Shown here one piece after another: positions 5,582 through 23,586 of a stretch of DNA of 32,000 bases. Below the pieces are notes generated by a model. It was given only the letters and a program-made list of their open reading frames with translations. It made no database searches and had not been told where the DNA came from. Numbering within the stretch: position 1 is the stretch's first letter; every line of letters begins with the position of its first letter. The stretch is from NCBI RefSeq assembly GCF_000025925.1, contig NC_014033.1, positions 60,001 to 92,000 of the forward strand, given 5' to 3'. This DNA comes from Xylanibacter ruminicola 23. GTDB taxonomy: Bacteria > Bacteroidota > Bacteroidia > Bacteroidales > Bacteroidaceae. A program made the translations under genes and the position numbers.

Positions 5582-5609
5582 TCAATTGTCAATTATCAAT
5601 TGTCAATTA
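5582..5609 (-). repeat. four tandem heptamers (coding strand YAATTGA) filling the rluB-asnS junction
   Basis: The minus strand reads TAATTGA CAATTGA TAATTGA CAATTGA, then TA ATG. The first TAA is the stop codon of the upstream gene (5609-5607). The array ends 2 nt before the asnS ATG (5579). Confidence 0.8.
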
Positions 5610-6956
5610 CTCATAAGCTCCCATACGCAGGCGGTCAACCTCCTCCTCGGTCAGGTAGCGCCAGTCGCCACGCTTCAGGTTCTTCTTAGTCAGACCAGCG
5701 AACTGTACGCGGTCGAGCTTCTGAACACGGTAGCCCAGGCTCTCGAAGATACGGCGAACGATACGGTTCTTACCTGAGTGAATCTCGATGCCAACCTGCT
5801 TCTTATCGGTAGGATGAGCATACTGAACGTCGTCGGCCTTAATCTCACCATCCTCAAGCTGGATGCCCTCGGCAATCTGTGCCAGGTCGTGAGCGGTAAC
5901 GTTCTTATCGAGGTAAACGTGATAAATCTTCTTCTTCAGGTACTTAGGATGTGTAAGCTTAGAAGCCAGATCGCCATCGTTGGTGAGCAGCAGCACACCA
6001 GTGGTGTTGCGGTCGAGACGACCTACGGGGTAGATACGCTCAGGACAAGCGTTCTTAACGAGGTCCATTACAGTCTTACGCTGCTGAGGATCGTCGCTGG
6101 TAGTAACGTAGTCCTTTGGCTTGTTGAGCAGTACGTAAACCTTCTTCTCGATGTTTACGGGCTGATCGTGGAACTTAACAACATCGGTACGCAGGATCTT
6201 TGTTCCCAGCTCGGTTACAATCTCGCCGTTAACCGATACTACACCTGCCTGGATGAACTCGTCGGCCTCGCGACGGCTGCAAACACCAGCATTAGCCAGG
6301 AACTTGTTCAAACGCAGTGGCTCGTTTGGATCGTAGTTAATCTCCTTGTACTCGATGCGCTTCTTCATAGAGTACTTTGCATTTGGATCGTAGTCGGCTG
6401 TGCGCTGACGTGGACCCTTCTTATAAGGAGCTGCTCCGTAAGGCTTGCCATAGCCACCCTGCTGAGGACGACCGTAGCCACCCTGCTGAGGACGACCGTA
6501 GCCACCCTGCTGGGGACGACCGTAACCACCCTGCTGAGGACGACCGTAGCCACCCTGCTGAGGACGCTGGCCATAACCGCCACCCTGTGGACGCTGGCCG
6601 TAGCCACCCTGCTGGGGACGACCGTAACCGCCCTGCTGAGGACGACCGTAGCCACCCTGTGGGCGCTGGCCATAACCACCCTGACGCTGCTGACCGTAGC
6701 CACCATCGTTATTGTAGTTGTTACGTGGACGATAGCCTCCCTGAGGACGCTGAGGTGCATTGCTCTGCAAACCTGCGCCGAATCCCTCTGGGCGGAACTC
6801 GCCTTCGTCGTTGTTATTGCGATAGCTGGGACGCTCATATACTGGGCGCGCAGCGGTATGAATGCGTGGACGTGGTGAACGACCTGGACGATACTCCTTC
6901 TGATATCCGTCCTGTGCAGTCTCTTCCTGTTTTTTCTCGTTGTTTTCGAAATCCAT
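5607..6956 (-). CDS. rluB: pseudouridine synthase, RsuA/RluB family (S4 domain plus catalytic domain) with a ~200-aa low-complexity Gly/Gln/Tyr/Arg/Pro N-terminal extension
   Basis: The S4 domain reads LRLNKFLANAGVCSRREADEFIQAGVVSVNGE. The catalytic block is YPVGRLDRNTTGVLLLTNDGDL. The N-terminal half consists of GGYGRPQQ-type repeats. The rluB symbol rests on family resemblance only. Confidence 0.85.
   Translation of the reverse strand: MDFENNEKKQEETAQDGYQKEYRPGRSPRPRIHTAARPVYERPSYRNNNDEGEFRPEGFGAGLQSNAPQRPQGGYRPRNNYNNDGGYGQQRQGGYGQRPQGGYGRPQQGGYGRPQQGGYGQRPQGGGYGQRPQQGGYGRPQQGGYGRPQQGGYGRPQQGGYGRPQQGGYGKPYGAAPYKKGPRQRTADYDPNAKYSMKKRIEYKEINYDPNEPLRLNKFLANAGVCSRREADEFIQAGVVSVNGEIVTELGTKILRTDVVKFHDQPVNIEKKVYVLLNKPKDYVTTSDDPQQRKTVMDLVKNACPERIYPVGRLDRNTTGVLLLTNDGDLASKLTHPKYLKKKIYHVYLDKNVTAHDLAQIAEGIQLEDGEIKADDVQYAHPTDKKQVGIEIHSGKNRIVRRIFESLGYRVQKLDRVQFAGLTKKNLKRGDWRYLTEEEVDRLRMGAYE
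6448..6705 (-). repeat. in-frame tandem repeat (24-nt unit with 21/27-nt variants, about 10-11 copies) encoding (Q)GGYG(R/Q)(R)PQ units
   Basis: The plus strand shows CCGTAGCCACCCTGCTGAGGACGA repeated almost identically at 6448, 6472, 6496, 6520 and 6544, with variants up to ~6705. The translation is QGGYGRPQQGGYGRPQQGGYGQRPQGGGYGQRPQQGGYGRPQQ... Confidence 0.9.
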
Positions 6957-12673: not shown

Positions 12674-14635
12674 TTATTTCCACCAGAACTCATCTACAAA
12701 TGTACCTTGTACATAGTCTGTGAATTTCTTATTTTCATTAGCAATATTTCTTCTTTCTGGTACAGGTACGAATGTGTCGTCGACCAGTATCTTACAGGCT
12801 GCTTCACCTGTTGTGGCCTGGAGCTCCATCCATGAGCCGTTCTTATATACCTCAATCTTAATATTCTTAATCTGCTCGGGAGTGGTGTACTCGCCGGTAA
12901 TCTCGAACTCAACGGGGTCAACATTCGGACCAGCACCCGTGTTATACATCTTATATTCGCCCTTTTCGTTGGGAGTTGTTTCGCCGAACAAGCCATGAAC
13001 CTCTATGCCCATCACTCTGAGTGGAAGCACACCGCCAGCACAAATCAGTCTCAGTGTGGTCTTGCCGCCTTCGGCCTTCACTACGTCGAAGACAACGTCG
13101 TTGAAGTCGAAATCTCCAGCTTCTGAAGCCGACAGGTCCTCAGCAATCACGCGGTAGAGTGGGGTGCTGCCGCCAACAAAGCCTGGGTTACATGGTGTTT
13201 CGGGAATGGTAATATTGGGCTTGCCCGATTTGAAACCGGCCGCGTAGATGTTGTCAGCTATGCCGAAACCATCAACTGCGTAGATAACCGTTCTGCCGGC
13301 ACCGCTGTCGCCTTGTGCGAAGTGAGTCTCTGCCGAAACATAGAGGTTGCCGCCGTAGATGATTGCGCCATGACTGTTGGTACTAGCAAGAGATGGGTCT
13401 CTGACAATATCCTTAGCCTGGAATACTGCATACCCATCTGGCGAGATGCCATAGATGCCATATCCTGAATCACCGGTTCTTCCGCATTCAAACTGGGCTG
13501 TTTTCTCAACTTTAAACACAGCATTCTCGCCCATCAAGATCTTAAATGGACCAGAAACGGCGCCAGAGCTTGAGTCTCTACCTCCATAGAAATTCTCTGT
13601 TACTACACCGCAACCAGCATCAATCTTGAAGGCACCTTCGGCAGATGAGATGTTCATCTCAAAGTCGTGGGTCACCTCAAGGAAACAGTTGTTGATTACG
13701 TTCTCGCTTCCACCGATGTAAGCATAGTCATAAGTAGTCCAATGTCCATTGTTTACCCAGCCAGAGTTGGTAGATTGGATTTTGGTGGTGTTGGTAACGT
13801 TACACTCGGCGTTGTTCTGTATAGCAGCTGCTTTTACAGTAACATTGGTGGCAGTGATGGTACCATCGTTTACAATTCGGCTATTGTTACTTTCGATATT
13901 TATGTTTCCTGCTTCCAGTGTGCCGACATTATAGAGGAAACCTGATACGTTAGTTTCGAAGGTGCCAACTTTGATGGTTCCATGATTGTAGATCTTGGTG
14001 CTATTGTTAGCCTTGAGGAGACCTGATGCCTCGAGTGTGGCACCTGCGGCAATATAAATGGCATCAACATTGAGAGTGATGGCACTAACCTCGCCTAACT
14101 TTAAGGTTGCTCCTTCAATCAGATAGATTGCCGATCGATAGTCAGGTGCAAATTTGGGGGAGTTGGCATCAGTGTCGCTATCTGATAAATCTACGGTTCC
14201 TGTTACATAAATCGTGCTGGCGCCAGCATACGTAGAAACAGATGGGGTTTCTGCATCAATGTAATAATTACCTGCTCCACCTCCCCATGATGGCAGTCTG
14301 TTGACACCTGCAGGTACTGCATTCAAGAAATTGCTGGCATTGCAGTCGGTCGGGAATGTGATGGTAGGCTGTAAGTTACCTTTGTACGAGGCATAAGTGC
14401 CCGCAGCACGGGTAAGGGCGCGTGTGTTGGCTTTCTTGCTGCTGAATCCCCAGTCAACATTGGAACCAACCTTACCAAACGCTTTTTCAAAAGCTGCAGC
14501 ATACTTTTCGTTCAAATTCTGTTCAACTTTCTCTTCGCTGTAGAGATATTTATCATGACTACACGACGAGAGCATGATCGTAACCAGAAGGGTGGTTACA
14601 ATTGCTATAAATCCGAAATTTCCTTTTGTTGTCAT
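12674..14635 (-). CDS. surface lipoprotein with Asn/Gly/Thr-rich beta-helix-like repeats and a C-terminal LruC/DUF4842-like domain
   Basis: The signal peptide plus lipobox is ...TLLVTIMLSSC. The central region has repetitive NxGTI/NVT segments. The C-terminal block YRVIAEDLSASEAGDFDFNDVVFDV resembles the acidic DxDFNDxV motif of LruC-domain proteins. The domain assignment is from memory, not a search. Confidence 0.65.
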   Translation of the reverse strand: MTTKGNFGFIAIVTTLLVTIMLSSCSHDKYLYSEEKVEQNLNEKYAAAFEKAFGKVGSNVDWGFSSKKANTRALTRAAGTYASYKGNLQPTITFPTDCNASNFLNAVPAGVNRLPSWGGGAGNYYIDAETPSVSTYAGASTIYVTGTVDLSDSDTDANSPKFAPDYRSAIYLIEGATLKLGEVSAITLNVDAIYIAAGATLEASGLLKANNSTKIYNHGTIKVGTFETNVSGFLYNVGTLEAGNINIESNNSRIVNDGTITATNVTVKAAAIQNNAECNVTNTTKIQSTNSGWVNNGHWTTYDYAYIGGSENVINNCFLEVTHDFEMNISSAEGAFKIDAGCGVVTENFYGGRDSSSGAVSGPFKILMGENAVFKVEKTAQFECGRTGDSGYGIYGISPDGYAVFQAKDIVRDPSLASTNSHGAIIYGGNLYVSAETHFAQGDSGAGRTVIYAVDGFGIADNIYAAGFKSGKPNITIPETPCNPGFVGGSTPLYRVIAEDLSASEAGDFDFNDVVFDVVKAEGGKTTLRLICAGGVLPLRVMGIEVHGLFGETTPNEKGEYKMYNTGAGPNVDPVEFEITGEYTTPEQIKNIKIEVYKNGSWMELQATTGEAACKILVDDTFVPVPERRNIANENKKFTDYVQGTFVDEFWWK

Positions 14636-14686: not shown

Positions 14687-14694
14687 CAAATATA
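14687..14694 (-). promoter_or_regulatory. candidate -7 box (TAtaTTTG) for the lipoprotein gene, with a second TAtaTTTG on the opposite strand at 14676-14683
   Basis: TATATTTGgcgCAAATATA (14676-14694) is a near-palindrome that carries a consensus -7 box on each strand. The minus-strand box lies 52 nt upstream of the ATG at 14635. A further TAttTTTG on the minus strand is at 14751-14758. Confidence 0.4.
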
Positions 14695-14886
14695 CGAAAA
14701 ATACAAGTATGTTGTACTTGGTGTATGGTTAATTAGTGTTAACTGTTGCGCAAAAATAATGTGTTCGAAAATAAAAAGCATTGTATGGTCGATAGATTAC
14801 GCGTGGTATATGCCAGAATCTTAGATGCCCTATCGTATATTTTTTCTATACAATAAACATTATTATTATTGAAAATTATGTAATTA

Positions 14887-14902
14887 GCCTACATGCCTAC
14901 AT
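14887..14902. repeat. outer left inverted repeat GCCTACATGCCTACAT
   Basis: It is the exact reverse complement of 15408-15423. Confidence 0.9.
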
Positions 14903-14945
14903 GTTTTTATCGTAAATGCCTATTATACAATATGTTACAAAGTTT

Positions 14946-15011
14946 AAAGCCTACATAAAGCCCCACAAAAGCCTACATAAAGCCTACATAAAGCCTACAT
15001 GCAGCCTACAT
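14946..15011. repeat. six consecutive 11-nt units (AAAGCCTACAT consensus), left inner array
   Basis: The units are AAAGCCTACAT AAAGCCCCACA AAAGCCTACAT AAAGCCTACAT AAAGCCTACAT GCAGCCTACAT. Positions 14947-14989 match the reverse complement of 15320-15362 at 41 of 43 positions. Confidence 0.9.
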
Positions 15012-15086
15012 GTTTTTGCCGTTTACCCACGTACTAACAGATATTGTTTGCCTGGTTAGCAGCTTTTATCCTTAATACTTGTTACG

Positions 15087-15104
15087 AAATTCTCTAGAGA
15101 ATTT
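15087..15104. repeat. 18-bp perfect palindrome AAATTCTCTAGAGAATTT (copy 1)
   Basis: The sequence is self-complementary and identical to 15152-15169. Confidence 0.9.
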
Positions 15105-15151
15105 TGCTACTACCTAGGCACTCAGCAATGTTTAGTAAGGCACTTAGCCGA

Positions 15152-15169
15152 AAATTCTCTAGAGAATTT
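15152..15169. repeat. 18-bp perfect palindrome AAATTCTCTAGAGAATTT (copy 2)
   Basis: It is identical to copy 1, with 65 bp centre to centre. The flanks are also loosely similar in direct orientation (..CG-palindrome-yGCnnCnnCC..TAGG). Confidence 0.9.
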
Positions 15170-15229
15170 CGCAGCATCCTTTAGGAAGAAATATTGCAAG
15201 TACATTAATAAGTATGTTTTCGCAAGGCA

Positions 15230-15310
15230 GAAAGTAGCTTTTCGCATACTGATAAGTAAGCATCAAAAGGCCCAAAAGCTACTTTTCGTACCCTAAAAAG
15301 CTACTTTTCG
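15230..15310. repeat. 15-mer family: GAAAGTAGCTTTTCG (15230-15244), inverted relative to two direct copies AAAAGCTACTTTTCG (15274-15288 and 15296-15310)
   Basis: Read directly from the sequence. A 12-nt stretch of copy 1 is perfectly complementary to copies 2 and 3. Confidence 0.85.
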
Positions 15311-15319
15311 GTCGATTTT

Positions 15320-15363
15320 ATGTAGGCTTTATGTAGGCTTTTGTGGTACTTTATGTAGGCTTG
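15320..15363. repeat. four consecutive 11-nt units (ATGTAGGCTTT consensus), right inner array, inverted relative to 14946-15011
   Basis: The units are ATGTAGGCTTT ATGTAGGCTTT TGTGGTACTTT ATGTAGGCTTG. The degenerate unit is in the mirror position of the degenerate unit in the left array. Confidence 0.9.
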
Positions 15364-15407
15364 AAAACGCCAGAAACCCTTTATGCATGCGGTTTTCGAG
15401 CGATTTT

Positions 15408-15423
15408 ATGTAGGCATGTAGGC
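15408..15423. repeat. outer right inverted repeat ATGTAGGCATGTAGGC
   Basis: It is the exact reverse complement of 14887-14902. The preceding CGATTTT also precedes the inner array (15313-15319 and 15401-15407). Confidence 0.9.
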
Positions 15424-15480
15424 AATATGCCGAAAAATTTTGGGTGGAAATGGAATCATATGGAATACTGGTTGATTGAG

Positions 15481-15521
15481 AAATAAAACAAAAGAGGTGC
15501 AGACGTTGAATCTGCACCTCT
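15481..15521 (-). terminator. rho-independent terminator of dnaK
   Basis: The minus strand reads AGAGGTGCAGA-ttcaacg-TCTGCACCTCT (11-bp stem at 15493-15503 / 15511-15521), followed by TTTGTTTTATTT. Confidence 0.85.
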
Positions 15522-15548
15522 TGGTTATGTTGTAAGTAAATCAGTTGT

Positions 15549-17465
15549 TTACTTTACCTCCTCAAAGTCGGCGTCCTGGATGTCCTCAGCCTTTGGACCT
15601 TCCTGCTGGGCCTGCTGCTGACCGCCCTGGAACTGATCGCCACCAGGCTGACCGGCTGCACCGCTCTGCTGGTACATCTGCTGCGAAGCAGTCTGCCAAG
15701 CAGTGTTCAGGGCTGCGATAGCTGTGTCGATAGCAGCTACGTCGCCTGCCTTGTGGGCATCCTTAAGCTGCTGCAGAGCCTGCTCGATAGCTGGCTTGTG
15801 CTGTGCAGGGATCTTATCGCCAAGCTCCTTCAGCTGATTCTCGGTCTGGAAAATCATAGAGTCGGCCTGGTTCAGCTTGTCAATGCGCTCGCGCTCCTTC
15901 TTATCGTTCTCTGCATTCTGCTCAGCCTCGGCCTTCATGCGGTTGATCTCGTCCTGTGACAGACCAGATGAAGCCTCGATGCGGATGGCCTGCTCCTTAC
16001 CTGTAGCCTTATCCTTGGCAGATACCTTGAGGATACCGTTGGCATCGATATCGAAGGTTACCTCGATCTGAGGAATACCACGGCGTGCAGGAGCGATACC
16101 TGTGAGGTTGAACTGACCGATTGACTTGTTCTGTGAAGCCATTGGACGCTCACCCTGCAGAACGTGGATAGTTACCTCGGTCTGGTTATCAGCTGCAGTA
16201 GAGAATGTCTCGCTCTTCTTGCAAGGGATAGTGGTGTTAGCCTCGATCAGCTTGGTCATTACGCCACCCATGGTCTCGATACCCAGTGTAAGAGGAGTAA
16301 CGTCGAGCAGTACGATGTCGCCTACGCCACCTTCCTTGTTCAGGATAGCACCCTGGATTGATGCACCTACGGCTACAACCTCGTCGGGGTTAACACCCTT
16401 TGAAGGCTCCTTACCGAAGTAGTTCTTAACCAGAGTCTGAACAGCTGGGATACGGCTTGAACCACCTACCAGGATTACCTCGTCGATATCAGCTGTGTTC
16501 AGCTTAGCATCGGCCATAGCCTTCTGACATGGAGCCAGACAAGCCTGGATGAGGTCGTGAGCCAGCTGCTCGAACTTAGCACGGGTAAGAGTCTTAACCA
16601 AGTGCTTAGGTACACCTGCTACAGGCATGATGTAAGGCAGGTTAATCTCGGTGCTTGTAGAAGAAGACAGCTCGATCTTAGCCTTCTCGGCAGCCTCCTT
16701 CAGGCGCTGCATAGCCATAGGATCGGCAGTCAGGTCGGCACCCTCGTCGTTCTTGAACTCCTGTACCAGCCAGTCGATGATAACCTGGTCGAAGTCGTCA
16801 CCACCCAGGTGAGTATCACCATTGGTAGAGAGTACCTCGAATACGCCGCCACCGAACTCCAGAATAGAGATATCGAATGTACCACCACCCAAGTCGAATA
16901 CGGCAATCTTCATATCCTTGTTAGCTTTGTCAACACCGTAAGCCAGAGCTGCGGCTGTAGGCTCGTTTACGATACGCTTTACGTCGAGACCGGCAATCTG
17001 ACCAGCCTCCTTAGTAGCCTGACGCTGAGAATCAGAGAAGTAAGCAGGTACGGTGATAACAGCCTCGGTAACCTCCTGACCCAGATAGTCCTCTGCAGTC
17101 TTCTTCATCTTCTGCAGAACCATAGCAGAAATCTCCTGTGGAGTGTACTTACGACCGTTGATGTCAACACGTGGGTAGCCACCCTCGTTAACTACAGTAT
17201 ATGGTACACGACCAATCTCTTTCTCGGTCTGCTGCCAATTCTCACCCATGAAACGCTTAATAGAGTAAACAGTGTTCTTAGGATTAGTGATGGCCTGACG
17301 CTTAGCAGGGTCACCGATCTTACGCTCACCGTTATCAACAAAACCAACTACTGAAGGTGTTGTACGCTTACCCTCGCTGTTGGCAATTACTACTGGCTCG
17401 TTACCCTCGAATACGGCAACACAGCTGTTGGTAGTTCCTAAATCGATTCCAATAATCTTTCCCAT
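15549..17465 (-). CDS. dnaK: molecular chaperone DnaK (Hsp70)
   Basis: [21 protein letters not shown]..., [12 protein letters not shown] and [14 protein letters not shown] are all present. Length is 638 aa with a Gln/Gly-rich tail ending in EEVK. Confidence 0.98.
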
Positions 17466-22065: not shown

Positions 22066-22177
22066 CAAACTTTTTCGCTAAGCAACAAACTTTTCGGGTT
22101 TTATTTGGTATTCTTCTCACTTATTATTACCTCTGAGCTTCGCTCTAAGGTACTTCCGTTCGAGAAAACTCAAATAA

Positions 22178-22211
22178 TATTTGGTTTTCTTCTCACTTAT
22201 TCGTACCTTTG
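22178..22211 (+). promoter_or_regulatory. candidate nhaD promoter module (-33 TTG at 22181-22183, -7 TAccTTTG at 22204-22211)
   Basis: TATTTGGTTTTCTTCTCACTTATTCGTACCTTTG has a 20-nt spacer between TTG and TAccTTTG. The box ends 43 nt upstream of the ATG at 22255. A degenerate copy lies at 22102-22135. Confidence 0.5.
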
Positions 22212-22254
22212 CAGCCAAATTCAAAACAATAATTAAAAAGTATTCTAAACAAAA

Positions 22255-23586
22255 ATGTCAACATTAACAATTTTGATTGTCGTTGTGTTCTGTATAGGCT
22301 ATCTTTGTATAGCTCTTGAGAGCCTGACAAAAGTAAATAAAGCGGCTATTGCGCTGCTGATGTGTGTGCTGTGCTGGACACTGCTTATGCTCGATCCAAT
22401 GTCGTATTATCCCAGCTTACTGGGCAGTGATGTGATGCACCACATATCCGAAGTTATCGAACATCATTTGGGCGATGCCGCAGGTACCTTGTTCTTCCTG
22501 ATGGGTGCCATGACCATCGTAGAGATTGTAGACTCAAACGGTGGTTTTAACTTTGTTCGCGATGCCATAAAGACACGCTCTAAGCGTAAGCTGATGTGGC
22601 GAATGGCCTTTATGACCTTCTTCCTTTCAGCTATTCTTGATAACCTAACAACATCTATCGTGATGATTATGGTGCTGCGTAAGTTGGTTCAGAGTCGTAA
22701 CGACCGATTGATCTATGCAGCTCTGGTTGTTATCTCGGCTAACTCGGGAGGCGCATTCTCGCCTATTGGCGATGTAACCACCATCATGCTTTGGATTAAG
22801 GGCGTTATTACTACTCAGGGTGTGCTGACCGAAATCTTTATCCCATCGCTGATTTCTATGCTGGTACCTGCCTTTATCCTGCAGTATCAGTTGGAAGGCA
22901 AGTTTGATAAGGAGCAGAATCTGCCAAAGGCCGATGTCAGTACCTTTACCAAGTCGCAGCGCGACATCATCTTCTGGCTGGGTGTAGGCGGTCTGTGCTT
23001 TGTGCCCATCTTCAAGACGATTACTCATCTGCCTCCATTCATGGGCATCCTGCTTGTTCTGGGTCTGCTTTGGACAGTTACAGAGATCTTCCACTACAGT
23101 GCTTCGGATGATGACACCATGGCCAAGCGTGTAAGCGATCTGCTGTCGCGTATCGACCTGTCTACCATTATGTTCTTCCTGGGAATCCTGATGGCTGTAG
23201 CCGTACTGCAGGAGGTTGGCGTACTCACCATGCTGGGTGGCGTACTTGATACCACTTTCGAGGGTAATCACTTCCTGGTAACAGGTATTATCGGTGTGCT
23301 CTCGTCGATTGTTGATAATGTGCCTCTGGTAGCCGGATGTATGGGTATGTATCCTGTGGCTGCTACTGGCGATATGGCTATCGATGGTATCTTCTGGCAG
23401 TTGCTGGCCTACTGTGCTGGTGTGGGCGGTTCAATGCTTATCATCGGATCGGCTGCTGGCGTGGTTGTGATGGGCCTCGAGAAGATTACCTTTGGCTGGT
23501 ATATGAAGAAGATTACCTGGGTGGCTTTTGTGGGCTATCTGGCAGGTATTCTTACTTACTGGGTTGAAAGAGCATTGTTCTTCTAA
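22255..23586 (+). CDS. nhaD: NhaD-type Na+/H+ antiporter (ArsB/NhaD permease superfamily)
   Basis: The protein is polytopic and 443 aa long. It has the FFLSAILDNLTTSIVM and ANSGGAFSPIGDVTTIMLW blocks characteristic of NhaD. Confidence 0.85.
   Translation: MSTLTILIVVVFCIGYLCIALESLTKVNKAAIALLMCVLCWTLLMLDPMSYYPSLLGSDVMHHISEVIEHHLGDAAGTLFFLMGAMTIVEIVDSNGGFNFVRDAIKTRSKRKLMWRMAFMTFFLSAILDNLTTSIVMIMVLRKLVQSRNDRLIYAALVVISANSGGAFSPIGDVTTIMLWIKGVITTQGVLTEIFIPSLISMLVPAFILQYQLEGKFDKEQNLPKADVSTFTKSQRDIIFWLGVGGLCFVPIFKTITHLPPFMGILLVLGLLWTVTEIFHYSASDDDTMAKRVSDLLSRIDLSTIMFFLGILMAVAVLQEVGVLTMLGGVLDTTFEGNHFLVTGIIGVLSSIVDNVPLVAGCMGMYPVAATGDMAIDGIFWQLLAYCAGVGGSMLIIGSAAGVVVMGLEKITFGWYMKKITWVAFVGYLAGILTYWVERALFF

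Follow-up and report, generated by a model that had tools for sequence, protein, structure and literature searches.

Between dnaK and a lipoprotein gene of Xylanibacter ruminicola 23 lies a non-coding element of mirror-image octamer arrays. The most fitting description is an orphaned copy of a cis element, bounded by iterons, that belongs to a Bacteroidales module formed by an HU-HIG gene and a primase-helicase gene with a VapE-like domain (hereafter VapE). The stretch of DNA analyzed here (the window) comprises 32 kb (32,000 nt) of contig NC_014033.1. In this window the element is located downstream of dnaK (15549-17465, minus strand; Pfam HSP70, E 1e-257) and upstream of an open reading frame (ORF) for a 653-aa lipoprotein (12674-14635, minus strand), which exhibits a lipoprotein signal (..LSSC) and has a UniRef homologue named 'Lipoprotein'. 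Both neighbors had been named by the original prediction, which was made from the letters of the window alone, and both were confirmed by these matches. The mirror-image arrays it described were likewise found with all of their coordinates, i.e., the outer doublets, six left units at 14946-15011 and four right units at 15320-15363. In the following, loci of relatives are labeled with L and a number (L039 being X. ruminicola D31d), and W is the window copy.

The octamer GCCTACAT occurs 12 times in the 32 kb, compared to 1.06 ± 1.03 times in shuffled sequences (none of 100 shuffles reached 12). All 12 copies are confined to 14887-15423, where seven copies on the plus strand (left) are followed by five on the minus strand (right), and the window copy has two degenerate units in addition to these exact octamers. 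Each side consists of an outer doublet, a spacer and an inner array with an 11-nt period. On the left, an A/T-rich terminal segment (..ttgaaaattatgtaatta; 14861-14886), which lies outside the doublet and belongs to the family consensus, is followed by the doublet GCCTACATGCCTACAT (14887-14902, plus strand) and by a 46-nt spacer (14903-14948, plus strand) of the 'B type', which is located at the HU-gene side in intact modules. The left inner array (14949-15011, plus strand) contains five exact octamers and a degenerate one, mostly with AAA linkers. Counted as 11-nt units (14946-15011), it includes four copies of AAAGCCTACAT, one degenerate unit (AAAGCCCCACA, 14957-14967) and one unit with a GCA linker. 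The right inner array (15320-15363, minus strand) mirrors the left one with three exact units and a degenerate one (TGTGGTACTTT, 15342-15352). It is followed by a 47-nt spacer (..CCGCATGCATAAAGGG..; 15361-15407, minus strand) of the 'A type', which is located at the primase-helicase side in intact modules, and by the doublet ATGTAGGCATGTAGGC (15408-15423, minus strand), the exact reverse complement of the left doublet. Of the right terminal segment (15424-15449), about 16 nt match L039 upstream of its VapE promoter before the homology stops. A repeat-finding tool aligned the inner arms over 50 nt at 94% complementarity (14943-14992 vs. 15317-15366), and the degenerate unit is the second from outside in each arm, i.e., it does sit at the mirrored position, as had been predicted.

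Several features go beyond the original prediction, namely two palindromes and four 12-15-mers in the core, and a conservation which reaches about 26 nt outside each doublet. The core (15012-15319) is 308 nt long, has a GC-content of 37% and is of the long-form type described below. It contains two perfect 18-nt palindromes AAATTCTCTAGAGAATTT, at 15087-15104 and 15152-15169, where 0.1 would be expected. The four copies of the 12-15-mer AAGTAnnTTTTCG / AAAAGCTACTTTTCG have a spacing of 22 nt and are located at 15210-15310. They comprise two direct copies of AAGTAnnTTTTCGCA that are 22 nt apart (15210-15246, plus strand; repeat family D9) and two copies of AAAAGCTACTTTTCG, also 22 nt apart (15274-15310, minus strand; repeat family D8), which are inverted relative to 15231-15242 (inverted pairs I15 and I16); both pairs are conserved in the alignment of orthologues.

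The region was also claimed to be non-coding and AT-rich. Indeed, no ORF of more than 62 aa was found in the element region. The claim of AT-richness holds insofar as the element has a GC-content of 38% compared to 48% for the window. However, as the entire 913-bp intergenic region is at 35%, this is not a specific property of the element. No transposase or site-specific recombinase was identified among the 19 window ORFs scanned (three ORFs were left out), in agreement with the prediction. The regulatory signals of both neighbors are located outside of the element: an intrinsic terminator of dnaK at 15492-15522 (minus strand) and, for the lipoprotein gene, the Bacteroidetes -7 promoter motif TATATTTG at 14687-14694 (minus strand). 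The promoter-proximal sequence of the lipoprotein gene is retained in L131 and L132, two distant homologues in other contexts without the element, which indicates that the lipoprotein gene is independent of it. A scan for sigma-70 promoters yielded one weak site, below the count in shuffles; as this consensus is not applicable to Bacteroidetes, the motif TAnnTTTG was searched for instead, and it is absent from both strands of 14887-15423. For the lipoprotein gene the region does not act as a switch; it is a relic of a neighboring module and possibly still bound by protein.

The repeat family and its home module

Relatives of the element were sought with an exact 19-mer, consisting of two adjacent units, against species-representative genomes, and all family counts given here are lower bounds. 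Among the matches listed there are more than 120 loci, and all but about four chance matches come from rumen or gut Prevotella, Xylanibacter and Bacteroidales. The parsed family consists of 65 complete elements and 47 single ends, which share one plan: an outer doublet, a spacer of 46-48 nt, three to six units at an 11-nt period, a core, and then the mirror image. Plus-strand arrays are followed by minus-strand arrays in 65 of 65 complete elements, all of which exhibit an outer doublet at both ends (with at most two mismatches). The spacer measures 46-48 nt in 168 of 177 ends despite a wide divergence of its sequence, its column profile showing a conserved A at position 13 and a conserved T at position 34. 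Outside of the doublets, conservation reaches about 26 nt (consensus aa.tttt.tt..AAAaTt...Aaa.A), past which the information content is zero (61 elements). The elements range from 237 to 624 bp and have mirror-image ends and no ORF. They occur in two forms, with short cores (n = 17; 29-61 nt) that lack palindromes and long cores (n = 48; 118-407 nt), of which 43 contain two palindromes of the TTCTCTAGAGAA type.

Single genomes can harbor numerous copies. The metagenome-assembled genome (MAG) RUI569 contains at least 14 loci, RUG14681 at least nine and four others at least five to six. The short forms in RUI569 are near-identical and share a common flank of only about 50-230 bp, beyond which the DNA is unique. 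Copies are more alike within a genome than between genomes, as exemplified by five loci of RGIG6721 (L009, L041, L044, L094 and L098), which constitute one spacer subfamily. Long forms are found beside unrelated genes as well (MgtC, UpxY-like, Fic, AraC, AsnC and others). For 37 elements both neighboring genes were called, with 18 elements in divergent, 14 in tandem and five in convergent intergenic regions. Many contigs, two of them with the lipoprotein gene of the window itself, terminate within an array, and the element thereby explains recurrent contig breaks in metagenome assemblies of Prevotella. The repeat strings were not found in the literature, and the published MITEs (miniature inverted-repeat transposable elements) of Prevotella and Porphyromonas are other elements.

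Clustering of 1031 ORFs from 8-kb loci unveiled only two protein families that recur beside the element. These are HU-HIG (PF18291; about 130 aa; 13 loci) and a protein of 704-719 aa with a BT4734-like_N and a VapE-like domain (PF08800 + PF05272; 11 loci), the genes of which flank the element divergently. As the repeat itself had served to choose these loci, four more (L133-L136) were selected solely for protein similarity (80-87% identity). Each of them exhibits the order HU-HIG, a gap of 665-1066 bp and VapE, and the gap is filled by the same plan of doublet, spacer, 11-nt arrays, two palindromes and mirror arm. In two of the four the octamer is AACTACAT or ACCTACAT, which reduces the conserved core of the octamer to CTACAT. 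The polarity is identical in 15 of 15 gene-anchored loci, with the B spacer toward HU and the A spacer toward VapE, and the window copy has the polarity predicted by synteny. HU and VapE each possess their own TAnnTTTG promoter 85-130 nt outside of the element, and variants of the palindrome recur in the HU-HIG promoter region of intact modules.

The larger protein resembles replication enzymes. Residues 400-644 of its VapE-like domain match residues 114-361 of PDB 7pds_A (E 6.9e-8), PHROGs classifies the protein with the families of DNA helicase and DNA primase, and PADLOC detects a PrimPol domain in it. Between species VapE is 77-90% identical. BT4734-like proteins belong to the archaeo-eukaryotic primase (AEP) family, and VirE/VapE has been predicted to be a helicase for the replication of mobile elements (PMC5862659). 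A previous survey of HU-HIG proteins noted almost no conserved gene linkage (PMC5499826). In gut and rumen Bacteroidales, both genes for primase-helicases of the BT4734/BF3469 type and expanded sets of HU-HIG genes are widespread, and the shared structured DNA element links the two, with CTACAT octamers and TTCTCTAGAGAA palindromes as its concrete sequences. This suggests that the gene pair is a replicon-like or helicase-loading module. In Bacteroides and Parabacteroides, genes of the BT4734/BF3469 family likewise have an HU gene opposite or, upstream, short arrays of tandem and inverted units, the sequence of which is different.

Such arrays are located upstream of BT4734/BF3469-family genes of Bacteroides finegoldii (L127, 3554-3790), Parabacteroides distasonis (L128, 3658-3776) and Bacteroides sp. 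CACC 737 (L126, 3698-3785). They include three copies of GCTGACAATAAG plus inverted copies, with 22-nt units besides, in B. finegoldii and 22-nt units with GTTTCTCCTAGAGGAAAC in P. distasonis, alongside 22-nt CACGGnnGTGA units and a 42-nt inverted repeat. These three records are labeled as plasmids, yet they carry housekeeping genes (priA, proC). The flanks of L133-L136 and L110 are variable and often of the defense or mobile type (Fic, HepT-like toxin, AAA_21, N6_N4 methyltransferase, T5orf172), suggesting that the module resides in variable genomic islands.

Further observations concern the composition of single loci. In L099 (1599-1900), L101 (5100-5479), L093 (3800-4266) and L066 (2500-2917), single ends consisting of doublet, spacer and inner array without a mirror arm are located near housekeeping genes (trpB, tsf) and are followed by other 22-nt units in tandem, the cores of which are CACGT or ACACGTT. 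It looks as though the GCCTACAT end were combinable with other repeat modules. In L005 (650-900) and other loci of RUI569 the short form is followed, on one side, by arrays of the 22-nt unit gcgacagcaagcaggagNcggt, resulting in a non-coding mosaic repeat of about 0.5 kb. Contigs binned as Pseudobutyrivibrio or Candidatus Saccharibacteria (L021, L027, L048) also carry a Prevotella-type element, in L048 together with an HU-HIG gene, which most likely originates from contamination of the MAG bins.

Gene loss and motif conservation at the window site

The window copy is an orphan, since it has lost by deletion both the HU gene and the primase-helicase gene, the former site of which was between dnaK and the element. 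Intermediate states are found among the relatives. L018 exhibits the complete order HU, element, VapE, dnaK, and window positions 15457-17104 align directly after its VapE gene. In L130, the dnaK of which is 91.9% identical to that of the window, a 59-aa BT4734-like remnant and the VapE promoter are left between dnaK and the element. The VapE protein of L039 lacks residues 85-273, and in L110 a VapE fragment and a 5′-truncated HU gene adjoin the element. In W, L129 and L025 no VapE or HU sequence was found by tblastn, and for W this applies to the entire 32-kb window. The flanks of W retain short traces of the former promoter regions.

At least five genomes (W, L129, L025, L130, L060) have the element itself at this site, and in one of them (L025) a deletion between repeat units removed the left spacer. 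The core of W is 96.8% identical to the core of L110 and 95% identical to that of L039. Window positions 14872-15439 align to 7372-6838 of L039, and the BLAST homology between W and L110 ends 5 nt beyond the doublets. Compared to L130, the element is 68.6% identical, i.e., considerably less than dnaK. This divergence is unevenly distributed: between W and L130 or L060 the octamer positions are 82-92% and the palindromes 92-100% identical, whereas the remaining element reaches only 57-59% and the flanks about 40%. Palindrome 1 (AAATTCTCTAGAGAATTT) does not vary among the five aligned orthologous sequences except in L060, where it carries substitutions. The motifs are conserved even in lineages with already fragmented adjacent genes. 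Such uneven divergence suggests that the motifs are kept either by selection, involving factors from elsewhere, or by continual copying between the copies. The family thus documents a cis element that outlives its genes.

The mirrored degenerate unit is common to W, L129, L039 and L110, while the more distant orthologues L130 and L060 contain ordinary units at this position. The change therefore arose once and was copied from arm to arm, and the original inference of such copying holds good.

A proposed protein-assembly site and its alternatives

With some confidence, though far from certainty, the element can be read as a site at which proteins assemble, probably for helicase loading in the manner of an origin or as an operator, and which in addition spreads in a MITE-like manner. 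Among the four candidates originally proposed without a choice, an iteron-like protein-binding array is the best supported one, judging from the conservation confined to units and palindromes, the rigid geometry of 177 ends and the home of the family beside a primase-helicase gene, relatives of which bind iterons. The element would constitute a multi-site platform for the assembly of proteins on double-stranded DNA, which offers about 12 octamers with the CTACAT core in two mirror sets, and in the long form also two TTCTCTAGAGAA palindromes and four 12-mers. By analogy with the origins of Staphylococcus aureus pathogenicity islands (SaPIs), the opposed iteron sets might position two helicase/initiator complexes on either side of the core, and the HU-like protein might bend the DNA. 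The palindromes are probably operators, which could also control the promoter of the HU gene. In the window lineage the element persisted with intact motifs after the loss of the HU and primase-helicase genes, suggesting that it is either still read by factors encoded elsewhere or maintained selfishly. As the bounded unit has multiplied to other intergenic sites in related genomes, the family also behaves MITE-like.

SaPI origins consist of six to 12 short iterons, half of them on each side of an AT-rich center, with at least two per side oppositely directed, and these iterons are bound by the C-terminal winged helix of Rep, two hexamers of which are probably loaded on either side (PMC9371898). 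The structure 7PDS shows SaPI1 Rep1 bound to DNA (PMC9371898). The element resembles these origins in having its iterons in opposed sets around a center (12 octamers in the window copy, seven on the plus and five on the minus strand). In 15 loci, unlike in the window, a family element is located beside an initiator-type primase-helicase gene, and the VapE-like domain of Prevotella matches SaPI1 Rep1 by sequence. There are, however, differences. The repeats of the element are octamers with a strict 11-nt period, accompanied by an outer doublet at a distance of 47 bp, and not penta- or hexamers as in SaPIs. It lies upstream of its gene, whereas the SaPI origin lies downstream, and its center of 230-400 bp contains palindromes and 12-mers instead of a simple AT-rich stretch. 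Furthermore, its module includes an HU-like gene, is apparently chromosomal and vertically inherited, and is accompanied by many gene-less copies.

Other known systems share single traits with the element. In theta-plasmid origins and in that of phage P4, where the alpha primase-helicase binds the ori/crr octamers, the initiator of the replicon itself binds tandem repeats with a helical-turn period, autoregulation makes use of inverted repeats close to the rep promoter, and a bending protein of the IHF/HU type is needed. The element differs from these iteron origins in lacking DnaA boxes, in its mirror-symmetric arrays and in not being located on a plasmid or phage. In parC of plasmid R1, two sets of five 11-bp iterons, bound by ParR, flank the parMR promoter. 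While repeat sets with an 11-bp period bracket a core beside the genes of the user proteins in both cases, the repeats of parC are direct and those of the element mirrored, and neither ParM/ParR genes nor a promoter in the core are present here. The anatomy, the family, its association with the genes, the orphaning and the conservation specific to motifs have been shown. The pairing of proteins with motifs and an initiation of replication at the element are inferred. The family, which was not found described in the literature, can be likened most to a SaPI-type origin or a helicase-loading site with built-in operators.

Several points weigh against an origin. The function rests on analogy, and the analogy is imperfect, as SaPI origins are located downstream of rep and have a short AT-rich center. 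The center of the element is crowded with further motifs, and in AT-content the element does not exceed the remaining intergenic region. The module looks vertically inherited and not like an obvious plasmid, phage or island. A blastn comparison of the element with plasmid and phage collections yielded nothing relevant (one viral contig exhibited three tandem units only), and the primase-helicase was not found in viral contigs. An origin of a plasmid or phage was accordingly rejected as an explanation, as was oriC, since no DnaA box TTATCCACA (with at most one mismatch) is present between 7700 and 17332. The variant of the octamer (GCC- vs. AAC-TACAT) did not correlate with the clade of VapE or HU in identity matrices, and the 32 kb of the window hold no intact HU / primase-helicase module according to tblastn. 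The AlphaFold model of the primase-helicase (mean predicted local distance difference test score, pLDDT, of 41) was unusable for the C-terminal winged helix. Finally, short forms without palindromes still multiply, for which the origin model alone is insufficient.

The family does multiply. In an improbable extension of the origin-like reading, the element might be self-propagating. Its helicase-loading sites, having arisen in the HU / primase-helicase module, would be copied to new intergenic positions by a replication-linked route without any transposase, i.e., by initiation at the element and subsequent template switching or foldback, and the copies would persist as functional secondary loading or nucleoid-organizing sites after the death of the adjacent genes. 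If this were true, the chromosomes of rumen Prevotella would carry dozens of dispersed platforms for a domesticated primase-helicase. A MITE-like element had been among the original suggestions, and a foldback-type MITE is a possible but doubtful explanation. In that case the octamers would be bound by a transposase encoded elsewhere, the element would move by a cut-or-copy mechanism and the gap between HU and VapE would be a favored or ancient insertion site. Drosophila-type foldback elements have long terminal inverted repeats composed of short tandem subrepeats, and the present element is likewise small, non-coding, multi-copy and intergenic, with terminal inverted repeats of tandem units and a variable number of units and variable center. 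The high copy number per genome, with sharply bordered copies in unrelated surroundings, the spacer subfamilies shared within one genome, the breaks of short-read contigs within arrays and the multiplication of short forms with cores of only 30 nt would all fit. Moreover, the flanking deletions in W and L110 stop at the element termini or about 6-34 nt from them, like deletions adjacent to transposons. The MITE-like character stands as far as the multiple copies within genomes of relatives and their unrelated flanks are concerned. No target-site duplication is evident, however, as the best direct repeats at offsets of 0-12 and 14-34 nt were distributed like those of shuffled left/right pairs. 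No copy encloses a gene and no transposase recurs among the ORFs of the 8-kb loci. The window copy is fixed at its site in the related genomes and the only one in the 32 kb. Furthermore, the single polarity in all primase-helicase loci, four of which were found independently of the repeat, would not be expected from chance insertion. The long form has a fixed gene context, and homologous genes of other genera exhibit analogous arrays of a different sequence. A large autonomous element was considered as well and rejected after the single ends had been checked, within their 8-kb loci, for a distant partner and a transposase; their neighbors are trpB, trpE, tsf, rpsB, hipA and mutS2.

The other alternatives ascribe the element to gene regulation or RNA. 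It is rather unlikely that it is purely a transcriptional control region, i.e., that it serves the divergent promoters of HU-HIG and the primase-helicase as an array of operators or as an insulator and is a functionless, undecayed fossil in the window. Its position between two divergent promoters, the palindrome variants in the HU promoter region and the separate proximal promoter that the lipoprotein gene keeps in species without the element are in line with this idea. It is weakened by motifs that are intact where the flanking genes are fragmented or gone and the neighboring non-coding DNA has only about 40-58% identity, by copies in convergent intergenic regions (five of 37) and far from module genes, and by at least 12 sites with a fixed 47-bp architecture, which is excessive for simple repression. 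A phase-variable segment, in which a recombinase flips 15012-15319 between the inverted arrays and thereby switches the lipoprotein gene, is highly improbable. Like the invertible promoters of surface-structure loci in Bacteroidales, the element is a segment of a few hundred bp that is flanked by inverted repeats and located upstream of a gene for a fast-evolving surface lipoprotein. The mirrored degenerate unit reflects sequence exchange between the arms, and assemblies break in the arrays. Yet, in contrast to invertible promoters, it contains no promoter, that of the lipoprotein gene being located outside, no recombinase was found among the scanned window ORFs, and W, L129, L025, L130, L060, L039, L110 and all gene-anchored loci agree in the orientation of the core; the proposal of an invertible segment is therefore not upheld. 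A search for junctions in metagenomes yielded no contigs for the inverted junction, but also none for the normal junction that served as control. An equally remote idea is a non-coding RNA transcribed across the region, either with a defined structure or as a sponge that offers repeated protein-binding motifs (GCCUACAU). While the core does fold better than shuffled sequences (z = -4.7 on the plus and -5.6 on the minus strand), the stability is symmetric because it originates from invariant palindromes at the DNA level. No Rfam match was obtained at gathering or permissive thresholds, no promoter motif points into the element, and the terminator of dnaK is located upstream of it. Single spacers seemed hairpin-like with compensatory changes, but RNAalifold on the 165 distinct spacers gave no consensus structure and an analysis of paired-column antidiagonals no covarying column pairs, and the spacer hairpins were abandoned. 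The suggested structured RNA is not supported.

Additional observations in the window

The lipoprotein gene evolves far faster than the adjoining dnaK, with a nucleotide identity between W and L129 of 85.6% compared to 98.9%. It has no match in Pfam, NCBIfam or PADLOC and may encode a surface protein under diversifying selection. At 22099-22219, upstream of a gene for a CitMHS transporter (22255-23586), the window contains a tandemly duplicated promoter-like module (..atttggtNttcttctcacttattNNtacctNtg..), the second copy of which ends with TAccTTTG and which has no match in Rfam. In L008 (5727-5917) the atttggtNttcttctcacttattNNtacctNtg module, again duplicated, directly adjoins a GCCTACAT element, and L082 and L107 have the module as well. 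Lastly, the ORF of a pseudouridine synthase (5607-6956) includes an N-terminal low-complexity region, which weakly matches the prion octapeptide repeat and coincides with a local peak of the GC-content (63% at 6401-6800).

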